Assembly: GCA_964596525.1 (NCBI GenBank)
Contig: CAZQUL010000001.1
Coordinates: 76,830 to 140,829 of the forward strand
Origin: an uncultured Gammaproteobacteria bacterium
GTDB lineage: Bacteria; Patescibacteriota; Patescibacteriia; Magasanikbacterales; GWA2-37-8
Reading direction: 5' to 3'
DNA: 64,000 bases
The first letter of the stretch is position 1. Each line of letters begins with the position of its first letter. The notes below the pieces were generated by a model. It saw only the letters and a list, made by a program, of their open reading frames with translations, had not been told where the DNA came from and did no database searches. This document shows positions 27,879 to 40,351 of this stretch, one piece after another. A program made the position numbers and the translations under genes.

Positions 27879-29156
27879 TTATACCGCATCGTATTCGTGC
27901 ATCGTAATCTGCGCATCGATCTGCTTGGCAGTTTCGATAGCTACCGCGACCGCGATAAGCATGCTCGTACCACCGATGCTCAAGCTCTGCGTTCCGGTAA
28001 CGATCTGGAGGATAAGCGGGAGGATAGCGATAACGCCAAGGAACAGCGCACCGCCCAAGTTCAATCGGTTCATGGTAGAGCTCAGGTATTCTTCGGTTTC
28101 CTTACCCGGACGAATCCCCGGGATAAAACCACCTTGCTTCTGGAGATTTTCGGCGATTTTCTGTGGATGGAAAATAACGCTCGTATAGAAGAATGTGAAG
28201 CCAAAGACCAGGATGAAGTACGCGATGGTGTATACGACACCCGTGTTCTGGAAGGCCTGCGTCACGCGGAATGCAAGTTCGGCAAGCCACGGCGTTGAAG
28301 AGTTGACGAGAAACTGCGCGATGAGCGCGGGCAAAGTAAGAAGCGACAAAGCGAAGATGATCGGCACGACGCCGGCCATGTTGACCCGGAAAGGAAGATG
28401 GGTGGACGAACCGCCCATCATGCGCATACCGCGCACCTGCTTGGCATAGGTTACCGGAATATTGCGCTGCGCTTCGTTGACGAATACTACGGCAATGATC
28501 GTACCCACAGCCATCGCCGCATAGAGGATGAAGGTGGTTGTATCATTCGAGGTATAGTTGAGGAACGCGTTACGCACTACCTGCGGGAGAGAGGCAACGA
28601 TACCCGCGAAGATAAGAAGCGACGTGCCATTGCCCACTTTCTGTTCGGTAATGAGTTCACCGAGCCAGACCAAGAACATGGTGCCGGCGGTGACGGTAAG
28701 GATGATGGAAATAACACCAAGCGGCGCAACATCCCCCAAAATACCCTGGCCCGACGTGCGCAGATACTGAAGCGTGGCATAACCCTGCATAAGGGCGAAT
28801 GGCACGGTGAGGTACCGCGTATAACGGTTGAGTGTATTCTGACCCTGCTCCCCTTCTTTGGATAATTCTTCAAACTTGGGCAGGATAATCGTGAGGAGCT
28901 GAATGATGATGGACGCAGTAATGTAGGGACCCACACCAAGCATGATCACCGAGAAATTTTGGATACTACCACCCGAGAACAAGTTAAGAAGGCCGAGGAT
29001 CTGGTTGCCTTCAAGCACTTGGCGGACGCTATTAACATCCACACCCGGAATCGGTACGTGCGCCGTAAGGCGAAACACCACCAAAAGACCGAGCACGAAC
29101 AAAATCTTGTTGCGCACTTCTTTCAGCGTCCAGAGGGAAGAAAGTTTTTCCCACAT
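27879..29156 (-). CDS. secY: preprotein translocase subunit SecY
   Basis: 10-TM SecY signature. 425 aa. Last gene of the ribosomal cluster. Confidence 0.93.
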   Translation of the reverse strand: MWEKLSSLWTLKEVRNKILFVLGLLVVFRLTAHVPIPGVDVNSVRQVLEGNQILGLLNLFSGGSIQNFSVIMLGVGPYITASIIIQLLTIILPKFEELSKEGEQGQNTLNRYTRYLTVPFALMQGYATLQYLRTSGQGILGDVAPLGVISIILTVTAGTMFLVWLGELITEQKVGNGTSLLIFAGIVASLPQVVRNAFLNYTSNDTTTFILYAAMAVGTIIAVVFVNEAQRNIPVTYAKQVRGMRMMGGSSTHLPFRVNMAGVVPIIFALSLLTLPALIAQFLVNSSTPWLAELAFRVTQAFQNTGVVYTIAYFILVFGFTFFYTSVIFHPQKIAENLQKQGGFIPGIRPGKETEEYLSSTMNRLNLGGALFLGVIAILPLILQIVTGTQSLSIGGTSMLIAVAVAIETAKQIDAQITMHEYDAV

Positions 29157-29168
29157 ATTGAAGAGAAG

Positions 29169-29609
29169 TTATTTGATCTCACCGCCCAGCGCTTTGATTT
29201 TTTCGGCTACCTGTTTGGTGGTTTTAAGACCGACCAGGGAGAGTTTTTTGGTGAGCTCGCCGGTACCGATCACCTTAGCGGTGCGGACCGTCGAATTAAC
29301 GAGATTTTTTTCTTTGAGCGCGGCGAGTGTGACTTCGCTGCCCGAAGCGAAATGCTTTTCAAGATCGGACAAATACACCTCGGAAGGCTTGGCCTTGAGG
29401 GAATTGAAACCGCGCAGTTTGGGCGTGGATTGCATCATGAACTTGAACGCCTTGATAGCAAGACCGCGTTGGCCGCCGGAGCGAGCCGTTTGGCCTTTAC
29501 CACCGCGCGTGGCGGAGGTGCCATGACCCGAGGCATTACCGCGACCGATCTGTTTGGGCGCTTTTTTGGCACCGCGCGCGGGTTTGATATTGCCAGGATG
29601 TAACATCAT
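29169..29609 (-). CDS. rplO: 50S ribosomal protein L15
   Basis: GRGNASGHGTSATRGGKGQ motif. Confidence 0.9.
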   Translation of the reverse strand: MMLHPGNIKPARGAKKAPKQIGRGNASGHGTSATRGGKGQTARSGGQRGLAIKAFKFMMQSTPKLRGFNSLKAKPSEVYLSDLEKHFASGSEVTLAALKEKNLVNSTVRTAKVIGTGELTKKLSLVGLKTTKQVAEKIKALGGEIK

Positions 29610-29634
29610 ACCGTAAAAAGTGAATACCTAAGAA

Positions 29635-30234
29635 CTAAGCCTGAGCAGCCGTTTCGGCGGCTTTGGTCGGACGCTTTTTGATTTTGACCTTTTCGTCGAC
29701 TTCAACTTCTTTGGCTGCGACTGGAGCATCGATCTTTACCACCTTAGCGCCTTTGAAGCGTTTCAACGCTTCAAACGTTGCTTTAACGGTAACGATCTTG
29801 TTTTTGGTCTTACCCAAAATCTTGGACGACACATTCGGAATGCCGGCCATGTCGAGCACGGTGCGCACAGCACCGCCGGCGATGATACCGGAACCGCGCG
29901 GAGCAGGCTTAAGCATGACAGTCGAGGATTTGAATTTTTTGATAACGCGGTGTGGAATGGTTTCGTTGACGATCGGGACGAGAATGATGTTCTTCTTGGC
30001 CTGGTGCACGGCTTTTTCTACGCCGAGCTGCACGTCTTTGCCTTTAGCGACGCCGAAACCAACGCGTCCTTTGCGGTCGCCGAGAATGATACAGATGCGG
30101 AAACTCATGTGTTTACCACCCTGGGTGACACGGGTGACACGGGCAATATCCAAGATAAACTGATCGAATTCAGATTTTTCGGCGTGCGGACGGCCCTGGC
30201 CCGGATTTTTTTTGAAGGCTCCTTTGGTGTTCAT
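29635..30234 (-). CDS. rpsE: 30S ribosomal protein S5 (with C-terminal K/A/E-rich extension)
   Basis: S5 dsRBD and C-terminal domains. Only 25 nt to rplO, so no room for L30. Confidence 0.9.
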   Translation of the reverse strand: MNTKGAFKKNPGQGRPHAEKSEFDQFILDIARVTRVTQGGKHMSFRICIILGDRKGRVGFGVAKGKDVQLGVEKAVHQAKKNIILVPIVNETIPHRVIKKFKSSTVMLKPAPRGSGIIAGGAVRTVLDMAGIPNVSSKILGKTKNKIVTVKATFEALKRFKGAKVVKIDAPVAAKEVEVDEKVKIKKRPTKAAETAAQA

Positions 30235-30254
30235 AAATAAAGTGGCTTAGAGCA

Positions 30255-30626
30255 TTAAAAGGAGAGACCGCCTGCACGGGCGCCTTCGGCCACGGCTTTG
30301 ACGCGGCCATGATAGCGGTAACCACCGCGATCGAAAACCGCGCGGGTGATGCCTTTTTCTTTAGCACGACTGGCGAGAAGCTCGCCAGCGGCGTGAGCCG
30401 CGGCGACTTTGGCGGTTTTTCCTTCCACCTTGACATCTTTAAGTTCAGCGGTACGAGCCGAAGCGAGAGTAACTCCTTTTTCATCATCGACAAGTTGCAC
30501 TTCCATGCCCTTGAGGCTACGGAAGACCGACAGGCGCGGGCACGACGATGTGCCGGACACTCGCGCGCGCACACGGCCGTGACGGATCTGGCGAAGTTGG
30601 TTGTGACTTTGGGTAAGTCGTTGCAT
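30255..30626 (-). CDS. rplR: 50S ribosomal protein L18
   Basis: L18 signature RLSVFRS...GYRYHGRV. Confidence 0.9.
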   Translation of the reverse strand: MQRLTQSHNQLRQIRHGRVRARVSGTSSCPRLSVFRSLKGMEVQLVDDEKGVTLASARTAELKDVKVEGKTAKVAAAHAAGELLASRAKEKGITRAVFDRGGYRYHGRVKAVAEGARAGGLSF

Positions 30627-30653
30627 ACGGGTGAGACACTAACGAGTAATGGC

Positions 30654-31202
30654 TTACGCGGCCTTCGAAGCGGCTTTGCCAGCTTTGCGGCGAACCACTT
30701 CGTCGGTATAGCGGATACCTTTGCCTTTGTAGGGCTCCGGTTTCTTGATGGAACGGATACGAGCGGCCATCTCGCCGACCTGTTGCTTGCTGATGCCCTC
30801 GACCGTAATAATATTTTTTTCAACCGACAATTTAACACCCGGGAGCGTTTCGATTTCGACCGGATGAGAATAGCCAGCTTCGACCACGAGCGCGTTCGCA
30901 CCTTTCATAGCTGCCTTATAGCCAACGCCGTTGATTTCGAGCTGTTTCTTATAACCTTCGGTAACACCCTTAATCATATTCTTGATGATGCTGCCCCAGG
31001 TGCCCCAGAGCGCACGATCGAGTTTGTCCGAAGTCGTCGGGACACTTACCATAAGCCCTTCCGGAGACTGGGCAACAGCAACGCGCGGATGAAGCTTTTC
31101 TTTGAGCTCTCCTTTGGGCCCCTTGACGGAAATCGTGCCTTTGCCGATTTCGACGTTCACGCCACTCGGGAGGGTGATTGGTTTTTTACCTATACGGGAC
31201 AT
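30654..31202 (-). CDS. rplF: 50S ribosomal protein L6
   Basis: MSRIGKKPI start chosen over the longer ORF. Two L6 repeats. Confidence 0.9.
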   Translation of the reverse strand: MSRIGKKPITLPSGVNVEIGKGTISVKGPKGELKEKLHPRVAVAQSPEGLMVSVPTTSDKLDRALWGTWGSIIKNMIKGVTEGYKKQLEINGVGYKAAMKGANALVVEAGYSHPVEIETLPGVKLSVEKNIITVEGISKQQVGEMAARIRSIKKPEPYKGKGIRYTDEVVRRKAGKAASKAA

Positions 31203-31213
31203 AGGAGAGAGAA

Positions 31214-31603
31214 TTAAAAGACTTCGCACAGAAGCTCGCCGCCGAGTTTGGCCGCACGGGCTTCTTTGTCGGTCATGATGCCTTGCGGAGTGGAAAGAAC
31301 CGCAACGCCGTAACCGTTGAAAACGGATTTGATCTCACCGTGCTTGACGTAGATGCGCGAACCCGGCTTACTGACGCGCTTAACGTGCGAGATGGCCGGC
31401 TCGCGATTAACGTACTTGAGCACGATGCGGATGGAGGGGTGAACATCCTTGAATTCTTCCGCGCTCACAAGGTAGCCTTCGCGCACAAGAAGAAGGGCGA
31501 TGGCCATCTTGAGTTTGGAAAACGGAACGAGCACCTCTTGTTTGTGCACGAGTGAAGCATTGCGAATGCGGGTGAGCATGTCAGCAATAGGATCAGTCAA
31601 CAT
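31214..31603 (-). CDS. rpsH: 30S ribosomal protein S8
   Basis: MLTDPIADMLTRIRNA N-terminus. Confidence 0.93.
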   Translation of the reverse strand: MLTDPIADMLTRIRNASLVHKQEVLVPFSKLKMAIALLLVREGYLVSAEEFKDVHPSIRIVLKYVNREPAISHVKRVSKPGSRIYVKHGEIKSVFNGYGVAVLSTPQGIMTDKEARAAKLGGELLCEVF

Positions 31604-31636
31604 AAGAAGACTTATTAGGAAACTTAGATAACAAAC

Positions 31637-31822
31637 TTACCAACTCGACTTGCTCACACCCGGAATCTGCGTGGCATTGGCCATCTCGCGGAAGCAAATA
31701 CGGCACACACCGAAACGGCGCATGAAACCGCGGCGGCGGCCGCAATTCCAGCAGCGGCGCACGATGCGGGTCGAGAATTTGGGCTTCTTGAGCGATTTGG
31801 CGATTTGAGCTTGAGTAGCCAT
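31637..31822 (-). CDS. rpsN: 30S ribosomal protein S14, zinc-binding type Z (61 aa)
   Basis: CWNCGRRRGFMRRFGVCRIC motif. Confidence 0.9.
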   Translation of the reverse strand: MATQAQIAKSLKKPKFSTRIVRRCWNCGRRRGFMRRFGVCRICFREMANATQIPGVSKSSW

Positions 31823-31825
31823 AGA

Positions 31826-32368
31826 CTATTGCGCAAAAGGAAAACCTAAATGACGAAGGAGAGCCTTGCCGAGGGTCTTGTTACCCGCAGTCGTCACGAT
31901 AATAACCTGCAAACCATGGACTTTATCGATTTCCTCGAGTTTAACTTCGGGGAAAGCAATGTTTTCTTTGAAACCTAAGGTGTAGTTACCCTGGCGATCG
32001 AAGCCTTTGTCGGAAATGCCATGGAAGTCGCGGACACGCGGCAAGGTGATCTTAAGCATCTTTTCGAGGAAGTCGTACATGCGCTCGCCACGCAAGGTGA
32101 CCGTCACGCCGATTTCCATACCTTCACGGATTTTGAAGTTGGAAATGGATTTCTTGGCCTTGGTGCGCATCGGTTTTTGGCCGGTGATGCGGGTAACAAC
32201 CTTTTCCACGTTTTCGACGAAGTGCGGTTCTTTGACGAAGCGGCCGACACCAACGTTAACCACCACTTTGGTGATTTTCGGGACCTGCATGCGGTTCGTG
32301 AGGTTCATTTCCTTCATGAGGGCAGGCACGACGTCGGTTTGGTAGAAGCGATACAAAGTATTGGACAT
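31826..32368 (-). CDS. rplE: 50S ribosomal protein L5
   Basis: L5 signature. 180 aa. Confidence 0.92.
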   Translation of the reverse strand: MSNTLYRFYQTDVVPALMKEMNLTNRMQVPKITKVVVNVGVGRFVKEPHFVENVEKVVTRITGQKPMRTKAKKSISNFKIREGMEIGVTVTLRGERMYDFLEKMLKITLPRVRDFHGISDKGFDRQGNYTLGFKENIAFPEVKLEEIDKVHGLQVIIVTTAGNKTLGKALLRHLGFPFAQ

Positions 32369-32388
32369 AGGAATCTCGGTAAGCGGGG

Positions 32389-32697
32389 CTAGCTAATAAA
32401 GGTGCCGCACTTCCGGCAAAACCGTTTTTTTACATCGCCGTCCATCTTATAGCCGACGCGGACGGTTTTGGAGCATGACGGGCACACCACCATAACGTTA
32501 GCAGCCGAAAGCGGAGCCGACAATTCGATGATCTGGCCTTTCTCACCGGCCTTGCGCGAGCGGAGGTGTTTCTTCATAATGTTCAACCCTTCGACAACGA
32601 CCTTGTTTTCTTCGTTGAACACCTGGATGACCTTGCCCGATTTGCCACTGTCTTTGCCGGTCATGATTTTTACGGTATCGTTACGTTTAATCTTCAT
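32389..32697 (-). CDS. rplX: 50S ribosomal protein L24
   Basis: KOW motif MKIKRNDTVKIMTGKDSGKSGKV. Confidence 0.9.
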   Translation of the reverse strand: MKIKRNDTVKIMTGKDSGKSGKVIQVFNEENKVVVEGLNIMKKHLRSRKAGEKGQIIELSAPLSAANVMVVCPSCSKTVRVGYKMDGDVKKRFCRKCGTFIS

Positions 32698-32709
32698 ATA
32701 AAGCGCGAG

Positions 32710-33081
32710 TTACAATACCTCCGGGGCAAGAGATATAATTTTTTGAAAACCCTTGGCGCGCAGCTCGCGAGCGACCGGTCCGAAAATACGCGAGCCTTTA
32801 GGTTCCTTGGTGTCACGGTCGATAATCACACCAGCGTTTTCGTCGAAACGGATGTAGGTTCCGTCAGTGCGACGCACTTCTTTATGCTGGCGGACAATGA
32901 CGACGTGCACAACGTCGCTTTTCTTTACCAAACCGCGCGGAGCGGCTTCTTTGACGACGCAGGTGACGACATCACCGAGCTCGGCATAGCGCTTTTTGTA
33001 ACCACCGAGTACGCGGATGCACTGCAGGCGTTTGGCACCGGTGTTGTCGGCGACGACGAGCATGCTACGATGTTGAATCAT
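32710..33081 (-). CDS. rplN: 50S ribosomal protein L14
   Basis: [18 protein letters not shown]-terminus. Confidence 0.93.
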
Positions 33082-33090
33082 ACACTTCGA

Positions 33091-33432
33091 TTACGCTTGA
33101 GTAACTACCCCGGTAAAGCGCCAGCGTTTGGTCTTGGAGATCGGGCGGCATTCCACGAATGAAACCTTTTCGCCGACTTTTGCTTTGCCTTCTTCGTCAT
33201 GTACGTGGTACTTGACGCTCGAGCGGTAGGTTTTGTGGTATTTGGGGTTGGATTTCATGGTATCGACCTTCACCACGATCGTTTTGTGCATAGCGGTCGA
33301 AACGACCGTTCCCACGAAACGACGCATTTTTTTGGCCGGTTCCTGGGCGGTTTTGGTTTCTACCGAAGTAGAAGCCTTGGGCGCGCGGGCCTTGGCCGGT
33401 TTTTTGGTTTTAGTAGCGGGAGACATACACAA
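33091..33432 (-). CDS. rpsQ: 30S ribosomal protein S17 (start uncertain; possible Lys/Ala-rich N-terminal extension)
   Basis: Core MRRFVGTVVSTAMHKTIVV. The longer ORF adds about 35 K/A-rich residues. Confidence 0.85.
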   Translation of the reverse strand: MCMSPATKTKKPAKARAPKASTSVETKTAQEPAKKMRRFVGTVVSTAMHKTIVVKVDTMKSNPKYHKTYRSSVKYHVHDEEGKAKVGEKVSFVECRPISKTKRWRFTGVVTQA

Positions 33433-33440
33433 AACAGTGA

Positions 33441-33632
33441 CTAAGTAGACGAACGGGAATGAAGAGCGGTCTTGAGGCGGGCGAGGAGCTGGCGAGTCGA
33501 GCGGATGAGATGCACCTGCTTCAAGGTGTGAGTCGAAGCCTGGAACGAGAATTCAGATAAGCGGCGTTCTTCGGCAGCGATGAGCTCCTTGAGCTCGGCG
33601 ATGGATTTGTCTTTGAGTTCAGCGAATTTCAT
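33441..33632 (-). CDS. rpmC: 50S ribosomal protein L29
   Basis: 63 aa, ELKDKSIAELKELIAAEERRL. Confidence 0.88.
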   Translation of the reverse strand: MKFAELKDKSIAELKELIAAEERRLSEFSFQASTHTLKQVHLIRSTRQLLARLKTALHSRSST

Positions 33633-33641
33633 AGGACGGCG

Positions 33642-34055
33642 TTAGACTTTTTCGACAAACTTGGTTTTGACACCCAGCTTGTACCCGGCCAACTTCATAG
33701 CTTCTTGAGCTTCGGGCTTGGCGACACCGACCATTTCAAAGAGAACTGTACCGGGTTTTACGACCGCGACATAGTGGTCAGGGCTGCCCTTACCACCACC
33801 CATCGGAGTTTCGTTGCCTTTTTTGGTAACCGGTTTGTCGGGGAAGATACGGATCCAGACCTTGCCACCGCGACGTACGTAGCGGGTAAGGATGCGGCGG
33901 ACCGCTTCGATCTGGCGGCTCGTGATCCAGCCGTGATCCTCGGATTTGATGCCGAAATCGCCGAAGGCAACCGTGTTGATGCGGGTGGCGACACCCTTGG
34001 CGCGACGGCGGCCCTTGTGCCATTTGCGGTGTTGTACTTTTTTAGGTAACAGCAT
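33642..34055 (-). CDS. rplP: 50S ribosomal protein L16
   Basis: [22 protein letters not shown]-terminus. Confidence 0.93.
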
Positions 34056-34060
34056 ACGAG

Positions 34061-34792
34061 TTAGGAGCGGTGCTCTTTAGGCTTGTGAGCATGAGCAGGT
34101 TTGCGATGTGCCGAGGCGCCAGTTTCCTGGGCTTCCTTCGTGAACTTGTCGTTCAGGCCAAAGCTTTCGCCGTGGTAGATCCAGATCTTGATACCGATTT
34201 TTCCGTACACGGTGTGGGCTTCGGCGAGCGCATAATCAACGTTGCTGCGGAGCGTAATGAGGGACATTTTGCCTTCACCGAGCTTTTCGGTGCGGGCGAT
34301 TTCAGCGCCGTTCAAGCGGCCACTCATGGTGACTTTTACCCCGCGCGCACCGGCTGCCATGACTTTTTGCATCAACTGTTTCATAACGCGGCGGAACGGG
34401 ATGCGGCGTTCGATTTCGCGGGCAGCATTGCCGGCGACGATGGTGGCCGAGAGGGCCGGATTTTTGACGGCCTGCACGTGCAAGCGGACCTTGGTTTTAA
34501 ACTGGAGGAAGGTGCGTTCAATTTCTTTGCGGATCACCTCAAGGCCCTGGCCGCTACGACCAATAACGACGCCCGGCTTGCCGGCCAAGATGGTGATGTT
34601 AACTTCTTTGGGCGAGCGTTCGATACTGATAGCATCAAGCTCAGCATCGCGGAGTTTCTTATTGAGATATTCGCGAATAGCCATTTCTTGACGCAAGAAT
34701 GTCGGCAAAAGTTCTTTGCGGGCGAACCAGCGCGAGTCCCACGGAAAGATGAGTGGGGTGCGATGAATTTTAGGGTGTACTTTGTGTCCCAT
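34061..34792 (-). CDS. rpsC: 30S ribosomal protein S3
   Basis: KH and S3-C domains, GHKVHP N-terminus. Confidence 0.92.
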
Positions 34793-34801
34793 AAAAAAAG
34801 G

Positions 34802-35284
34802 CTAGGTGGACGAGGTAGACGCGCCCTTCTTCGCGGTTTTAGCGCGCGGAGCACGAGCTTTAGTGGCTTTCTTAGTCGGGGCTTTCGGTTCGACCGAAGC
34901 TTCCTCTTTAGGAGTTCCTTCGGCAGCCTGGCCAGAGAGCACAATGTGGATATGCGAGGTGCGTTCGCGAACCGGAGTGGCGCGACCATGAGCCTTCGGC
35001 ATCCAGCGTTTCAAAGCCGGACCACCGTCGACGGTAATGGATTGCACGCGGAGATTATTCTCGGAGAGAGAATAATTGTGGCGTGCGTTAGCGACGGCCG
35101 AGAGAAGAAGCTTGAGAAGGGGTTTGGCCGGACGCTTGTTCGTGAGCGTCAAAATCGATACCGAACGGTTGACCGAACGGCCGCGGATAAGATCGGCGAC
35201 GAGGCGCACTTTGCGCGGACTCATGCGCAGGAAGCGCAGGTGAGCGGTAACGTGTTGTTGCATACGAGAATAAAAGTGAGCCAA
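34802..35284 (-). CDS. rplV: 50S ribosomal protein L22 (with C-terminal K/A-rich extension)
   Basis: MSPRKVRLVADLIRG signature. Confidence 0.9.
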   Translation of the reverse strand: MAHFYSRMQQHVTAHLRFLRMSPRKVRLVADLIRGRSVNRSVSILTLTNKRPAKPLLKLLLSAVANARHNYSLSENNLRVQSITVDGGPALKRWMPKAHGRATPVRERTSHIHIVLSGQAAEGTPKEEASVEPKAPTKKATKARAPRAKTAKKGASTSST

Positions 35285-35286
35285 GC

Positions 35287-35619
35287 TTATTTCTTAGCAG
35301 CCGGTTTCGCGGCGGCCGGAGCCGGAGCGGCGGTCTTAGCGGCTTCTTGATCCTTGGCCATCTTACCACCATGACGCACGAATTTACGCGTCGGAGCAAA
35401 TTCACCCAAGCGGTGGCCAACCATGTTTTCTTCTACCAAGACGGTCAAGAAATCCTTGCCATTGTGGACCAAGAACGTAGTGCCGACCATTTCCGGAGAA
35501 ATGACGCAGGCACGGGACCAGGTTTTGATCGGGGCCCGTTTGCCGCTTTTTTTGAGCGCCTCAACTTTCTTGAGGATACGCGGATCGATATACGGACCTT
35601 TCTTTAAACTGCGGGACAT
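35287..35619 (-). CDS. rpsS: 30S ribosomal protein S19 (with C-terminal A/K-rich tail)
   Basis: [20 protein letters not shown]-terminus. Confidence 0.92.
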
Positions 35620-35658
35620 AAGATATGGGTAATCAGTAATGAGTTACTGCTACGTTCT

Positions 35659-36507
35659 TTAAAGGCTGGATTTGCCTTTGCGCGGCTGGATGATGAACTT
35701 GTCACTCCACTTGTTGCGCTCACGGGTTTTGACACCACGTGCTTTCTTGCCATAGACCGTCATCGGACCGCGACGCTGACCGATCGGGCTGTGACCTTCA
35801 CCACCACCGTGCGGGTGGTCAGCCGGGTTCATATTCTTACCTTTGACCGTGGGTTTAATGCCGCGGTGGCGCATACGACCAGCTTTGCCCCAGCGGATAA
35901 GACGGCGGTCCGGGTTGCTGACAGTACCGATGGTAGCGCGGCAGTCTTTGCGGATAAGGCGCATTTCGCCCGACGGCATGCGGAGCGTGACATAGTCGCC
36001 TTCGAGGGCGACGAGCTGGGCCGATACGCCAGCGCCGCGGACAATTTGACCGCCTTTTCCCGGAGTAAGTTCTACATTGTGGACGAAAAGACCAACCGGA
36101 ATGGATTCAAGCGGCATACGGTTACCGGTTTTAGCCTCGATAGCGTTCTTAGACGAAAGGATGGTTTCGCCGACGGTCAAGCCATCCGGTGCCATGACGT
36201 ACGCTTTAGTGGCATCGGTGTATTCGATAAGGGCGATGCGGGCACCGCGGTTCGGATCGTATTCAATAGCGATAACTTTGGCCGGCATGTCGAATTTTTC
36301 CTGGCGGAAGTCGACGATGCGGTAGTACTTCTTGGCGCCGCCAGCACGGTGGCGAACCGTAATCACACCCTGGTTGTTGCGGCCTGATTTGGCCTTGAGG
36401 ATGGTGATGAGACTTTTCTCCGGCTTGAATTTGGTGATGTCCTTAAAAGCATCAACGCTTGAAAGGCGGCGGCCCGGACTGGTTGGTTTGTGTTGCAAAA
36501 TAGGCAT
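35659..36507 (-). CDS. rplB: 50S ribosomal protein L2
   Basis: L2 signature. 282 aa. Confidence 0.93.
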   Translation of the reverse strand: MPILQHKPTSPGRRLSSVDAFKDITKFKPEKSLITILKAKSGRNNQGVITVRHRAGGAKKYYRIVDFRQEKFDMPAKVIAIEYDPNRGARIALIEYTDATKAYVMAPDGLTVGETILSSKNAIEAKTGNRMPLESIPVGLFVHNVELTPGKGGQIVRGAGVSAQLVALEGDYVTLRMPSGEMRLIRKDCRATIGTVSNPDRRLIRWGKAGRMRHRGIKPTVKGKNMNPADHPHGGGEGHSPIGQRRGPMTVYGKKARGVKTRERNKWSDKFIIQPRKGKSSL

Positions 36508-36512
36508 AGACT

Positions 36513-36971
36513 CTAGACACCTTCATGGAGAGTAAGGGCCGAACCGGATGGCAAGGTGACGATGGCTTTCTTGCAATCCGAGCGGCGACCAAAGGCGCGG
36601 CCCGAGCGGACCTTCTTGCCTTCGTTCGTGATGAAGTGCACGGCGGTCGGTTTGACACCATAACGCTCTTCGACGGCCAAAGCGACGGTTTTCTTTTTGG
36701 CATCTACAGCGACTTCGAAAGCGTACTTATTCATGGCTTTGAGGGCCAAGATCTTTTCGCTCAGAAGTGGCGCAAGGAGTACCTTTTCGTGGACACCGCC
36801 TTTGCCGAGAGCAACCGGAGCAGCCGGAGCTTTGGTGCGGGTTTTTTTGGCAGCACCTTCTTTTTTGGCAGTGGTTTTCTTTTCAGTCGGAGCGGCTTTT
36901 TCCGTGGCCGGGGCGGCGGCTTCGGTACCGGCATCCTGTTTCTTTTTAGCCCAGCGTTCAAGTAATCCCAT
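36513..36971 (-). CDS. rplW: 50S ribosomal protein L23 with about 60-aa Lys/Ala/Glu-rich N-terminal extension
   Basis: L23 core EKVLLAPLLSEK...AVHFI. No internal start codon, and the ATG is coupled to the rplD stop. Confidence 0.85.
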   Translation of the reverse strand: MGLLERWAKKKQDAGTEAAAPATEKAAPTEKKTTAKKEGAAKKTRTKAPAAPVALGKGGVHEKVLLAPLLSEKILALKAMNKYAFEVAVDAKKKTVALAVEERYGVKPTAVHFITNEGKKVRSGRAFGRRSDCKKAIVTLPSGSALTLHEGV

Positions 36972-36976
36972 ACAAA

Positions 36977-37612
36977 CTAGTTAGAGGAGGAAAAACGCTC
37001 CTTGAGCTCGGCGAGAGCAGCGGAACTGACAACGAGAGCTTGCGATGAAAGAAGGTCGATAACGCTCACGTCTTTAGCCTGCTTGGTTTCTACCTGCGGC
37101 AAGTTGCGCGTCATGCGGAAGAGAGAACCATGCTCTTTATCAGCAAGCACCAAGAATGAGTTAAAACCTTTCGGCAGCTTGGTGATGAGGGTGTTGAAGA
37201 GCTTGGTTTTCGGTTCGGCAAACGAGTAATTATCGATAACGAAAACCGCTTTATGCTCGGCTTTGTCGGAGAGGCACATGAGGGTCGCAACGCGGCGAGC
37301 TTCTTTGTTGATCTTGGTCTTGTAGGTGCGTTCCGAGAGCGGACCAAAAGCTACACCACCACCTTTCCAGATGGGCGAGCGGATAGAGCCGTGGCGAGCG
37401 CGGCCAGTACCTTTTTGTTTCCAAGGTTTCTTACCACCACCGCTTACTTCACCACGTTTCTTGGCGTTGGCCCATGGTTCGCGCTGGTTGTTGGTCTGGG
37501 CGACGAATACTTCATGGACGAGAGCAGGCTTGACTTTGACTCCAAAAAGCTCAGGCTGAAGTTCGACTTCGCCAACCGACTGACCGCTGATATTATAGAC
37601 AGTTGTTTTCAT
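36977..37612 (-). CDS. rplD: 50S ribosomal protein L4
   Basis: L4 signature. 211 aa. Confidence 0.92.
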   Translation of the reverse strand: MKTTVYNISGQSVGEVELQPELFGVKVKPALVHEVFVAQTNNQREPWANAKKRGEVSGGGKKPWKQKGTGRARHGSIRSPIWKGGGVAFGPLSERTYKTKINKEARRVATLMCLSDKAEHKAVFVIDNYSFAEPKTKLFNTLITKLPKGFNSFLVLADKEHGSLFRMTRNLPQVETKQAKDVSVIDLLSSQALVVSSAALAELKERFSSSN

Positions 37613-37632
37613 ACAAATAGAGGGGCTCTTCG

Positions 37633-38328
37633 TTAGGCGGCAGCCGGAGTTTCGGCAGCCGGGGCAGCGGCGGTAGACGATGGGTTCGACGCTTTGGTAA
37701 CCGTGAGGGTACCTTCACCCATGATCATGACGAGGCCGTTGCGACCACCAGGGATCGCGCCCTTAATGAAGAGTTCGTTGGTTTCGGGATTAACACGGAT
37801 GACTTCAAGATTTTTTACCGTGACACGGTCACCACCCATGCGACCGGCCATGCGCATACCTTTAAAAACGCGCTGTACACCACCAGCGCCGCTTGAACCG
37901 CGGGCGCGGAGGTTGTCTTTATGACCGTGGGAAGCCGGACCACCACCGAAGTGATAGCGTTTGACGACACCGGCAAAACCTTTACCTTTGGAAGTGCCGA
38001 TGACTTCGACAGTATCTCCGGGAGCGAAGGTATTGACCAAAACCATGTCGCCACGCGCAACATCAACTGGTTTCTCGTTGACGAATTCGCGGAGCGCTTC
38101 GGACGGCTTGAGGTCCTTGAGGTGGCCCTGCAGGGGCTGTGAGAGGCGCCACTCTTTCTTTTCGCCGACGCCAAGCTGGATAGCCTGCACGTTCTGCCCG
38201 TCTTTGACGAGCGCGCGGACCTGGACTACCTGACACGGACCAGCAACAACACGCGTGACCGGAACAACGTCGCCGTTTTCCTGGAACACCTGTGTCATAC
38301 CGATTTTCTTTCCCAAAATGCATTTCAT
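37633..38328 (-). CDS. rplC: 50S ribosomal protein L3
   Basis: MKCILGKKIGMTQVF N-terminus. Confidence 0.93.
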   Translation of the reverse strand: MKCILGKKIGMTQVFQENGDVVPVTRVVAGPCQVVQVRALVKDGQNVQAIQLGVGEKKEWRLSQPLQGHLKDLKPSEALREFVNEKPVDVARGDMVLVNTFAPGDTVEVIGTSKGKGFAGVVKRYHFGGGPASHGHKDNLRARGSSGAGGVQRVFKGMRMAGRMGGDRVTVKNLEVIRVNPETNELFIKGAIPGGRNGLVMIMGEGTLTVTKASNPSSTAAAPAAETPAAA

Positions 38329-38376
38329 ACCTTTGGTATGCTTACCAGTGCTTGCCGTGGGGCAAGATGGTGTTTG

Positions 38377-38429
38377 TATAAAAAAACTAGAAGCGTCAAC
38401 GGTGGAGTTTCACCAGCTCGCGCTTCTAG
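38377..38429 (-). terminator. intrinsic terminator/attenuator hairpin in the rplC leader
   Basis: Minus-strand CTAGAAGCG-[25-nt structured loop]-CGCTTCTAG followed by TTTTTTT, about 50 nt upstream of the rplC ATG. Confidence 0.55.
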
Positions 38430-38602
38430 CCTTTCTAACAACTACCCTAAAAACCCTTCTGTTACCGTTAGAATGGCAGTCAAAATTCTCAAAATAACTC
38501 CTTTTTCCGCTCTTTAGATATCTCCTCATGTTTTCTGAGCACACAGATCTTATGAGTCTCTACGTAAAAAGCGTCATGTATTAATTAACCTAACTCCGCG
38601 TG

Positions 38603-38631
38603 ATTATAACAGGCAAAGACGGCTTTGTCAA
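38603..38631 (-). promoter_or_regulatory. consensus sigma70-like promoter TTGACA-N17-TATAAT (minus strand) between rpsJ and rplC
   Basis: Minus-strand TTGACAAAGCCGTCTTTGCCTGTTATAAT, perfect -35 and -10 with 17-nt spacing. Confidence 0.6.
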
Positions 38632-38713
38632 GCCAAGTCTTGAGCGCGGCGGATAGGGCATCGACGGTCGATAACCTACCCCCTGGCTCAAGAACACGTA
38701 ACCAGGGTAGATG

Positions 38714-39064
38714 CTACATTTTAATCTCAACATCAACGCCCGAAGGGAGGTTGAGGCTCATAAGCGCATCGATGCACTTAGGCGAAGCGTTGATGATGTC
38801 GAGAAGGCGCTTGTGGGTGCGCATCTCAAACTGTTCGCGCGCGTCTTTGTGCACGAACGTGGAACGGTTCACCGTGAAGCGGTGCTTTTCGGTGGGCAAG
38901 GGTACCGGACCGATGACTTTGGCCTCATAACGACCGGCGGTCTCGACGATCGTCTTGGTGGCCAAGTCGATGATGCGGTTGTCGTACGCGCGGATTTTGA
39001 TGCGGATACGCGAAACAGCATCCTCCTTTTTGACCTGCTGCGTTGTCGGTTTAACGTTAGACAT
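38714..39064 (-). CDS. rpsJ: 30S ribosomal protein S10
   Basis: S10 signature [14 protein letters not shown]. Confidence 0.93.
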
Positions 39065-39157
39065 GTGATTAAAAAACTAAAGAACTTAACAGAATATTTT
39101 GAGAAATATCACATCCCAAACTCAAGAGGCGCAGAAATGCTGCGCCTCAAGCGTTTG

Positions 39158-40351
39158 TTATTTGATGATCTTGGCAACGACACCGGCGCCGACGGTTTTA
39201 CCGCCTTCGCGGATGGCGAATTTCATTTTCTCTTCGAGAGCAACCGGAACGATGAGTTTAACTTTGATGCTGACAGTATCACCCGGCATGACCATTTCCG
39301 TACCGGCCGGAAGCTCGACTTCACCAGTTACGTCGGTCGTGCGGATGTAGAACTGCGGTTTGTAGCCTTTGAAGAACGGCTTGTGGCGACCGCCTTCGTC
39401 TTTGCTCAAGACGTAGACTTCACCCTCAAACTCGGTGTGCGGCTTAACCGAACCGGTTTTGGCCAAAACCATACCGCGTTCGACTTCTTCTTTTTTGGTA
39501 CCGCGCAAGAGGAGACCGGCGTTGTCACCAGCCAAACCTTCTTTGAGCTGTTTGTTGAACATTTCAACACCCGTAATGGTGGTTTTCATGGATTCTTCGC
39601 GCAAACCAACGATTTCGACTTCTTCACCGACTTTAATGACACCGCGCTCAATACGACCAGTAACGACGGTACCACGGCCTTCGATGGAGAAGACGTCTTC
39701 AACCGGCATGAGGAACGCCTGGTCGGTGACGCGGACCGGTTCCGGGATGTATTCATCAACGGCCTTGAGGAGTTCAAGGACGGATTTGGCAGCCGTATCA
39801 TCGCCCGGGTTCTGGAGGGCAGAGAGGGCGGAACCGCGGATGATCGGGGTTTTGTCGCCTGGGTAGCCGTATTTAGTGAGAAGGTCGCGAACTTCGGCCT
39901 CGACGAGGTCGACAAGTTCGGTGTCCGGCACCAAGTCAACTTTGTTAAGGAAGACGACGATGTATTTGACGCCGACCTGGCTGGCGAGGAGGATGTGCTC
40001 GCGGGTCTGCGGCATGGGACCATCGGCGGCGGAAACGACGAGGATGGCACCGTCCATCTGGGCAGCACCGGTGATCATGTTTTTAACGTAGTCGGCGTGG
40101 CCAGGGCAGTCGACGTGCGCGTAGTGGCGGTTGACGGTCTCGTATTCAACGTGCGACGTGGCGATGGTAACGATTTTGGAAGCATCACGCACCGTGCCAC
40201 CTTTGGCGATGTCGGCGTATTCTTTCTTGTTACCCAAACCGCGGGCAGCGGAAACGGCGGTAAGCGCGGCGGTAAGCGTGGTTTTACCGTGGTCGACGTG
40301 ACCGATGGTACCGATATTAACGTGTGGCTTGGAGCGTACAAACTCAGCCAT
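39158..40351 (-). CDS. tuf: elongation factor Tu
   Basis: [10 protein letters not shown] and DCPGHADY G-domain motifs. 397 aa. Confidence 0.97.

Follow-up and report, generated by a model that had tools for sequence, protein, structure and literature searches.

A candidate leader RNA family between the S10 and L3 genes of Magasanikbacteria- and Uhrbacteria-type Patescibacteria

In Escherichia coli, ribosomal protein (r-protein) L4 and NusA raise termination at a hairpin in the S10 operon's leader, a process that requires an upstream hairpin and involves no antiterminator (PMC3616713, PMC10931766). Leaders of this family are limited to Gammaproteobacteria (PMC3616713). In the infC-rpmI-rplT leader of Bacillus subtilis, also an attenuation system, binding of L20 decides whether the terminator forms (PMC1865079). 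Candidate r-protein leaders (r-leaders) tied to the S10 gene cluster have been described in Firmicutes/Clostridia (PMC7247131, PMC11109978), and in Archaeoglobi a candidate L4 leader precedes rplC-rplD-rplW-rplB, its ligand being assigned by precedent only (Eckert & Weinberg 2020, PMC7247131). The ligand of leaders before r-protein operons is almost always an r-protein (PMC7247131, PMC3616713). Here, we analyse the gap between rpsJ (S10/NusE) and rplC (L3) in 64,000 nucleotides (nt) of contig CAZQUL010000001.1 (assembly GCA_964596525.1, positions 76,830 to 140,829), placed in the Magasanikbacterales of the Patescibacteriota. This whole stretch is called the window below and all positions are counted in it. 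The gap holds a structured RNA element flanked by a promoter and a terminator, and its comparison with relatives outlines a leader family that appears to belong to Magasanikbacteria/Uhrbacteria-type Patescibacteria.

We read the rpsJ-rplC spacer as a leader RNA of about 215 nt for the operon running from rplC and rplD to rplO/secY, acting as a regulated attenuator, and we give this reading a probability of roughly 0.6. The parts on which it rests are the following.

38329-38713, minus strand: gap between rpsJ and rplC, 385 nt
38603-38631, minus strand: sigma-70-type promoter, with the -35 box TTGACA at 38631-38626, a 17-nt spacer and the -10 box TATAAT at 38608-38603
38508-38573, minus strand: 5' hairpin domain P0-P1-P2, supported by folds and by family covariation
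38573-38561 paired with 38520-38508, minus strand: helix P0
38556-38552 (CUCAU) paired with 38529-38525 (AUGAG), minus strand: helix P1
38551-38547 (AAGAU) opposite 38534-38530 (AAAAC), minus strand: internal loop, invariant in the family
38546-38544 (CUG) paired with 38537-38535 (CAG), minus strand: helix P2
38498-38502, minus strand: purine box AGGAG, like a Shine-Dalgarno (SD) sequence, 5 nt 3' of P0 and complementary to the 16S 3' tail
38429-38477, minus strand: P4 domain, GCCAUUCUAAC at 38477-38467 pairing with GUUAGAAAGGC at 38439-38429, with an A.A mismatch and a variable insert enclosed
38380-38429, minus strand: P5, intrinsic terminator with U7, CUAGAAGCG at 38429-38421 pairing with CGCUUCUAG at 38395-38387 over 9 base pairs (bp)
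37633-38328, minus strand: rplC (L3), first gene of the operon that would be controlled

The original prediction had seen a perfect TTGACA-N17-TATAAT promoter in this 385-nt gap, and it was right: the site matches the consensus at 12 of 12 positions, has an extended -10 TG at 38611-38610, and is the sole such site in the 10 kb scanned, where the runner-up reaches 10/12. By an arithmetic estimate, chance alone would give about 0.008 perfect 12/12 sites at 17-nt spacing per 64 kb, both strands included. Transcription is predicted to start at about 38597-38595, and 174 nt separate the end of the -10 hexamer from the start of the P5 hairpin. The 9-bp hairpin and U7 proposed before rplC were likewise recovered, at coordinates right within a few bases. 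The lower stem of P5 contains an internal loop and an upper stem (GGUG/CACC), and U7 occupies 38386-38380. Folding gives a stable terminator, at -25 kcal/mol against -11.9 +/- 2.6 for shuffles (z = -5.0), and P5 shows the stable stem followed by a U-tract that characterises intrinsic (Rho-independent) terminators. The whole gap folds with z = -5.9 relative to shuffled sequence. The terminator motif has one occurrence in the window, where 0.01 are expected, and because of this uniqueness we rejected the idea of a repeated genomic element.

Between P5 and the start codon lies a last stretch of the gap.

38329-38379, minus strand: stretch from terminator to AUG, 51 nt, variable, without promoter or SD

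The corresponding distance in the family ranges from 4 to 136 nt, with a median of 53 and one outlier of 267 nt, and promoter-like sites of at least 9/12 between terminator and rplC are absent in 67 of 68 spacers and present in one. A hairpin of the window that could sequester the AUG (CAUACC-AAA-GGUAUG, before rplC) is not conserved in relatives. Since there is no promoter behind the terminator, every transcript of the ~10-kb operon must pass P5, and this obligatory read-through implies that P5 sets the operon's output. The order of promoter, RNA, terminator and gene, with no later promoter and with a gap that is sometimes shorter than 15 nt, follows the logic of an attenuator. The layout first described from the window is real and, as we show next, conserved with covariation, which makes a transcription-attenuation leader its natural reading.

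Promoter-like and terminator-like sites are common in scans, and one might think that the spacer is an ordinary, neutrally evolving operon boundary with an incidental promoter and hairpin. But a promoter followed by a terminator is unlike the order at a boundary, and relatives allow this idea to be judged. By L3 homology the window belongs to the Patescibacteria, and the nearest genome-derived loci carry Magasanikbacteria, Uhrbacteria or 'Patescibacteria group' labels and have 50-70% L3 identity. The S10-L3 gap measures ~320-455 nt in the seven relatives that retain both genes in full, and ~310 and ~275 nt in two truncated by their contigs (L008 and L009); the median gap in 46 loci of other phyla with both genes is ~58 nt. 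Metagenomes were scanned with the pattern of the terminator block, GGCTAGAAG N15-45 CTTCTRGYTTTT, giving 120 contigs among the matches listed, and 90 of these 120 lie between S10 and L3, or beside whichever gene the contig retains, on the same strand. The other 30 listed matches were considered as copies elsewhere, an interpretation that we abandoned: the 27 inspected are chance matches lacking module A, i.e. P1/P2 with the internal loop. After removal of duplicates, the listed matches left 91 spacers, 79 of them complete, with a median length of 338 nt.

The module A motif is seen in about 75 of the 91 spacers and is common to all nine loci found via L3 homology. When its P1/P2 model is aligned, 89.6% of cells are paired, against 72.5% in shuffled data and 37-48% in controls with slid partners, and cells with double changes number 104 against 37 +/- 7, a figure that none of 500 shuffles reaches. 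In spacers of the window's type (type-1) P1 takes the forms xAAAU/AUUUx or CAGAU/AUCUG, in the Uhrbacteria-like type-2 spacers the form GGAAG-A/CUUCC, and the type-2 pair tables agree with the P1/P2 covariation; P2 is reducible to CC-tetraloop-GG in some members. The sequence of P0 varies by lineage, the cognate duplex having -11.2 kcal/mol against -7.0 +/- 0.29 for permuted partners (0/200 permutations equal the cognate). P5 has a stem of 9-11 bp followed by U6-7, and its inner stem covaries as well, with a first inner pair that is CG in 28 members, UA in 17 and GC in 4. The base of the stem, CUAGAAG/CUUCUAG, is almost invariant in the family, and GCUAGAAG...CUUCURG was found in 8 of the 9 relatives located independently via L3.

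P4 follows an A-rich linker that extends from the purine box and ends in AAAGCC. Family members have here an AGCC/GGCU pairing, directly adjoining the terminator and enclosing variable hairpins; in most cases an A.A mismatch and another helix accompany it. The extension of P4 forms 3.80 of 8 pairs in cognate combinations and 3.25 +/- 0.14 in permuted ones, none of 500 permutations reaching the cognate value, and covarying variants include CCUCAAA/UUUGAGG and CCUAAAA/UUUUAGG. The last base of P4 is the first base of the 5' arm of P5. In the window the box reads UGCC, where the family has AGCC, and we infer its P4 pairing from the family; the minimum-energy fold of the window pairs this stretch otherwise.

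Some additional pairings were noticed around these helices. In several members (L195, L133, L085 and others) the A-tract 5' of the AGCC box, e.g. AAAAAACUA, is perfectly complementary to UAGUUUUUU at the 3' end of P5, and the counterpart in the window would join 38431-38436 with 38380-38386. Once the RNA is released, pairing of A-tract and U-tract could complete a three-way junction together with P4 and P5, a helix that covariation is unable to test because all its pairs are A-U. Pairing of the A-tract or of the AAAGCC box with the 3' end was set aside, as no covariation appeared over the 3'-end classes, and so was pairing of the AAAAC loop with GUUUU of the U-tract, for which members having GGCUUUU give no covariation. 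In a subgroup made of L195, L133, L137, L138 and L140, the two strands of P0 (AAAGCCAAU ... AUUUGGCUAGGAG) nearly repeat those of P4/P5 (AAAGCCAUCU ... AAGGCUAGAAG). Strands could be swapped in this subgroup; the duplication is not seen in the window's sequence.

Covariance models were used to delimit the family. Matches of model R1, which represents module A, are confined to S10-L3 spacers: against some 70 loci of other phyla it gave no significant match and a single weak one (L052, E = 0.43). Some Bacteroidota loci also have long S10-L3 intervals, of 470-750 nt in L039, L040 and L045 and of 1.3-2.3 kb in L011, L044 and L038, and R1 matches none of these six. Model R2, built without the window, has a single match in its 64 kb, at 38522-38559 (24.9 bits, E ~0.01). 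Taken together, the roughly 100 members, with covariation in four helices and constancy of the loops, appear to make up a well-defined family, and the alignment of spacers from related genomes shows a conserved, covarying spacer. Since its parts are kept across genomes whose L3 proteins are only 46-70% identical, and four helices covary, the comparative data refute the neutral boundary, and we consider its probability negligible.

The promoter deserves separate treatment. Its presence in front of L3, as originally predicted, is a property of one lineage: TTGAC[AT]-N17-TAnnnT occurs in 38 of 39 complete type-1 spacers, always with a spacing of 17 nt and with a median of 37 nt from the end of the -10 box to the AAGAU motif, but in none of the 20 type-2 spacers. 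These have a long hairpin right 3' of rpsJ where type-1 spacers have the promoter (GGGAACUGCGAC...GUCGCAGUUCCC, then ACUGCAC, immediately after the rpsJ stop; L032 ~2681-2760, L087, L147), which may be a processing or stabilising element. Because type-2 spacers lack a consensus promoter, their transcription probably enters from rpsJ, and the type-2 element is probably an attenuator lying inside a transcript that includes rpsJ as well.

This difference between lineages bears on whether the element is a stand-alone small RNA gene of ~215 nt, with its own promoter and terminator, acting in trans while the operon is expressed by constitutive leakage. The consensus promoter and the strong terminator do flank a compact covarying structure, and the helix of A-tract and U-tract might protect the 3' end of the terminated product. 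Yet type-2 relatives have kept the RNA without the promoter, which implies that its action on rplC is in cis and that it is not in the main a gene of its own. Its placement and orientation directly before rplC are constant in about 90 loci among the matches listed, and its terminator sometimes ends 4-15 nt before the AUG. As rplC has no other promoter, the element must act in cis; a trans role could come in addition. We thus find a separate RNA gene unlikely.

If the element is a regulated attenuator, its most constant parts may show where the regulator binds. The AAGAU/AAAAC loops remain constant while the neighbouring helices change. Loops that stay fixed between covarying helices typically mark a specific binding site and point to a specific ligand; the 5' hairpin domain with these loops is therefore the likely ligand-binding site. 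The U of AAGAU and the first A of AAAAC probably form a base pair (100% and 95% of cells), and both are invariant. The near-invariance at the base of P5 exceeds what a terminator needs and suggests that the P4-P5 junction is recognised too.

Invariant nucleotides in an internal loop, covarying helices and then a terminator as expression platform would also be expected from a riboswitch-like attenuator that responds to an alarmone, an ion or some other small ligand, such as a signal of growth rate, and no mimicry of E. coli ribosomal RNA (rRNA) was found that would favour a protein. However, the part that never varies is no more than a 4x4-5x5 loop, no antiterminator was found that would connect an aptamer to the terminator, leaders in this position almost always bind proteins (PMC7247131, PMC3616713), and no Rfam riboswitch matched. 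We regard this possibility as quite unlikely. More generally, the 4227 models of Rfam 15 gave no relevant match at E <= 10 in 37500-39500, no gathering-level match in the whole window beyond two transfer RNAs (tRNAs), and no match at E <= 1 in the spacers of nine relatives; on the E. coli S10 leader this negative is uninformative, because Rfam 15 has no model for it. Neither a tRNA nor a transfer-messenger RNA was found in the rpsJ-rplC spacer.

The purine box raises a different set of questions. It takes the forms AGGAG, GGAGG and AGAAAGG, lies 18-29 nt 3' of the 3' strand of P1, and is the spacer's best anti-SD match in 33 of 68 spacers. The 16S tail is GGAUCACCUCCUUUCU in three relatives; two relatives have a 16S rRNA gene at ~3 kb from their S10-L3 spacer (L163 7389-8877, L170 7107-8600), which helped to read the anti-SD tail. 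Inspection of 14 genes of the tuf/S10/spc cluster (29156-40351, minus strand) revealed no SD at normal spacing in any of them, and this is why the purine box stands out: it is the only well-placed SD-like sequence near these SD-less genes. The comparison of family spacers revealed no conserved open reading frame (ORF), reading frame or start codon behind it. The box may bind the 30S subunit, pair with the CUUCU arm or be part of a protein site.

These observations leave room for an account in which the leader senses ribosome capacity, the box capturing free 30S subunits by their 16S 3' tail and thereby setting termination at P5. That the box is complementary to the anti-SD, has a fixed position, precedes no ORF and can pair with the 3' arm of P5 is consistent with it, and were it true the assembled subunit, rather than a free r-protein, would control r-protein transcription. 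We consider it very unlikely. Its more explicit form, in which binding of the 16S tail shifts the terminator balance, e.g. by freeing the CUUCU 3' arm, seems to us about as improbable. The variants AGGAG and AGAAAGG do slide along the complement of the anti-SD as true SDs would, a conserved SD-like site is conspicuous where 0 of 14 cluster genes have an SD, and the pairing of box and 3' arm reaches -10 or -11 kcal/mol in some members. But this pairing is weak in most members, the box lies partly within the 3' strand of P0 in some, no start codon or ORF follows it, and the mechanism is without precedent.

A purine box could alternatively serve a leader peptide, whose translation would control formation of the terminator. 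In the window the box is followed after 7 nt by a UUG that opens an ORF of 16 codons, and UUG occurs at a similar distance in some relatives. Most members, however, have no start codon there, and the ORFs differ widely in length, the shortest having 3 codons and the longest over 30. The three frames are open to similar extents (medians of 11.5, 14 and 13 codons), and ORFs show no preference for ending at the UAG that is conserved within GGCUAGAAG of the terminator arm. This explanation is largely refuted and highly improbable.

The regulated attenuator would then work as follows. In the lineage of the window, transcription would begin at the consensus promoter just 3' of rpsJ, and in the sister (type-2) lineage it would probably read in from rpsJ. 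The nascent RNA would fold in order into the P0-P1-P2 hairpin, the purine box, the A-rich linker, P4, and abutting it P5 with its U-tract. An r-protein of the operon, when in excess over free rRNA, might bind the 5' hairpin at its invariant loop, the sequence-invariant P4-P5 junction, or both, and this binding would raise termination, an autogenous feedback of the E. coli L4 type. Both the regulation of termination and the r-protein effector are inferred here. The ligand candidates would be L4, because of the precedent, and L3, because its gene comes first in the operon; either assignment is much more tentative than the attenuator itself.

Several results weigh against this reading. When each arm of P5 was compared with the upstream leader by RNAduplex, no positionally consistent antiterminator partner was found except P4. 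Folding a close subgroup to a consensus while the 3' arm was kept unpaired also yielded P4 only, and covariation cannot be used to search for an antiterminator because the terminator arms are invariant. The alternative terminator/antiterminator structures that had been envisaged at the outset thus did not appear. Enhanced termination of the L4 type needs no antiterminator, and fits their absence here. Furthermore, P5 looks strong and efficient (9-11 bp and U6-7), which leaves the source of read-through unexplained, and the purine box has no role in the model. No convincing mimicry of rRNA was found in E. coli 16S, 23S and 5S, the only rRNAs compared, either as a match of R1 or as a match of loop plus flanking helix. 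Three resemblances were considered and discarded: that of GGCUAGAAGC to GGCUUAGAAGC of 23S H43 is weakened by the variability in the family of the base after AGAAG; that of AGAUAAG..CAUCU to the surroundings of E. coli 23S 2736-2756 (domain VI), a region which we take to be H97, is weak, and not meaningful because it coincides with the covarying P1; and CCAAGGCUAAAUAC at 23S 420 is a 7-mer match only. A BoxA-like sequence (NusB/S10) 5' of module A in the window is not present in relatives. Finally, members from metagenomes were chosen by the terminator motif, whose invariance is unbiased only in the nine genome loci, and pair statistics come from anchored or model-fitted alignments; module A, P0 and P4 played no part in the selection of members.

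The surroundings of the element are those of a large r-protein cluster.

39158-40351, minus strand: tuf
38714-39064, minus strand: rpsJ (S10/NusE), stop TAG at 38716-38714, outside the attenuated unit and always directly 5' of the element
38674-38712, minus strand: hairpin right 3' of the rpsJ stop, -16 kcal/mol, z = -2.3, without U-tract

The start of rplC, MKCILGKKIGMTQVF, is the conserved L3 N-terminus; on an identical public contig the gene is annotated 10 codons too short, and the sample of SRR11567520 also contains an identical contig. It is followed by rplD (L4, 36977-37612), rplW, rplB and the S10/spc cluster on to rplO and secY (~27.9-38.3 kb, minus strand), with intergenic gaps of 3-51 nt where readable. 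Upstream, tuf and rpsJ had been thought to form a unit of their own with a weaker hairpin. The hairpin exists (38712-38674), its sequence not being conserved among type-1 relatives. The unit is not established: a strong hairpin just 3' of the tuf stop, GAGGCGCAG..CUGCGCCUC (39126-39148, minus strand, -23.9 kcal/mol, z = -5.7), is followed by UUGAGUUUGG, and this terminator-like element separates tuf from rpsJ. No promoter-like site of at least 9/12 was found upstream of rpsJ in the window. Further along the cluster, rpsE and rplO are separated by 25 nt only (29609-29635), so that there is no rpmD (L30) gene, the usual state in bacteria of the Candidate Phyla Radiation (CPR). L23 (rplW, 36513-36971, minus strand) has 152 residues with a Lys/Ala-rich N-terminal extension of about 55, and the C-terminal tail of L3 is Ala/Pro-rich (..NPSSTAAAPAAETPAAA; 37633-37700, minus strand).

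Patescibacteria, or CPR, make up a large share of bacterial diversity and have small genomes with few recognisable regulators. To our knowledge, nothing is known of how they balance ribosome synthesis, and we found in the literature searched no description of a patescibacterial r-protein leader of this kind. With this element, their main r-protein operon would gain its first candidate for feedback control. Attenuation would also have been invented independently on the block of genes under L4 control in E. coli, but starting one gene later. With the leader placed after rpsJ, S10/NusE, which also serves in transcription antitermination, would escape the control. Adding the family to RNA libraries would end the unannotated status of these S10-L3 spacers.

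How does the element compare with the leaders described so far? A covariation-supported structure directly before r-protein genes, at a constant position before rplC, places it among the candidate r-leaders. With the L20 leader of B. subtilis it shares a leader of ~200 nt before an r-protein operon; that leader has an explicit alternative between antiterminator and terminator and a mimicry of the L20 site of 23S, neither of which was found here, and the operon and the protein are other ones. The L4 candidate of Archaeoglobi has the same position directly 5' of rplC but an archaeal host, and the negative Rfam 15 result extends to it only if that library, whose content we did not check for this family, includes it. 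The S10 candidates of Firmicutes/Clostridia are set apart by their description, since they lie 5' of rpsJ and in another phylum. The closest likeness is with the E. coli S10 leader: in both, an attenuator hairpin with a U-run comes after further hairpins, and the same block of genes follows, from rplC, rplD, rplW and rplB onward. Unlike that leader, which lies 5' of rpsJ and whose last hairpin overlaps the S10 start, the element stands between rpsJ and rplC, in all relatives too. Model R1 does not match the E. coli S10 leader locus (L204), and the sequence of that leader, with its five hairpins of which HD and HE are conserved, contains neither AAGAU/AAAAC nor CUAGAAG/CUUCUAG. Hence, of the two origins offered in the original prediction, a leader that moved finds no support in the R1 search, the motifs or the position, and independent origin is the better wording. 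To judge from these comparisons, the element is a new leader family of a known kind, which would work like the E. coli S10 leader but lies outside its family.

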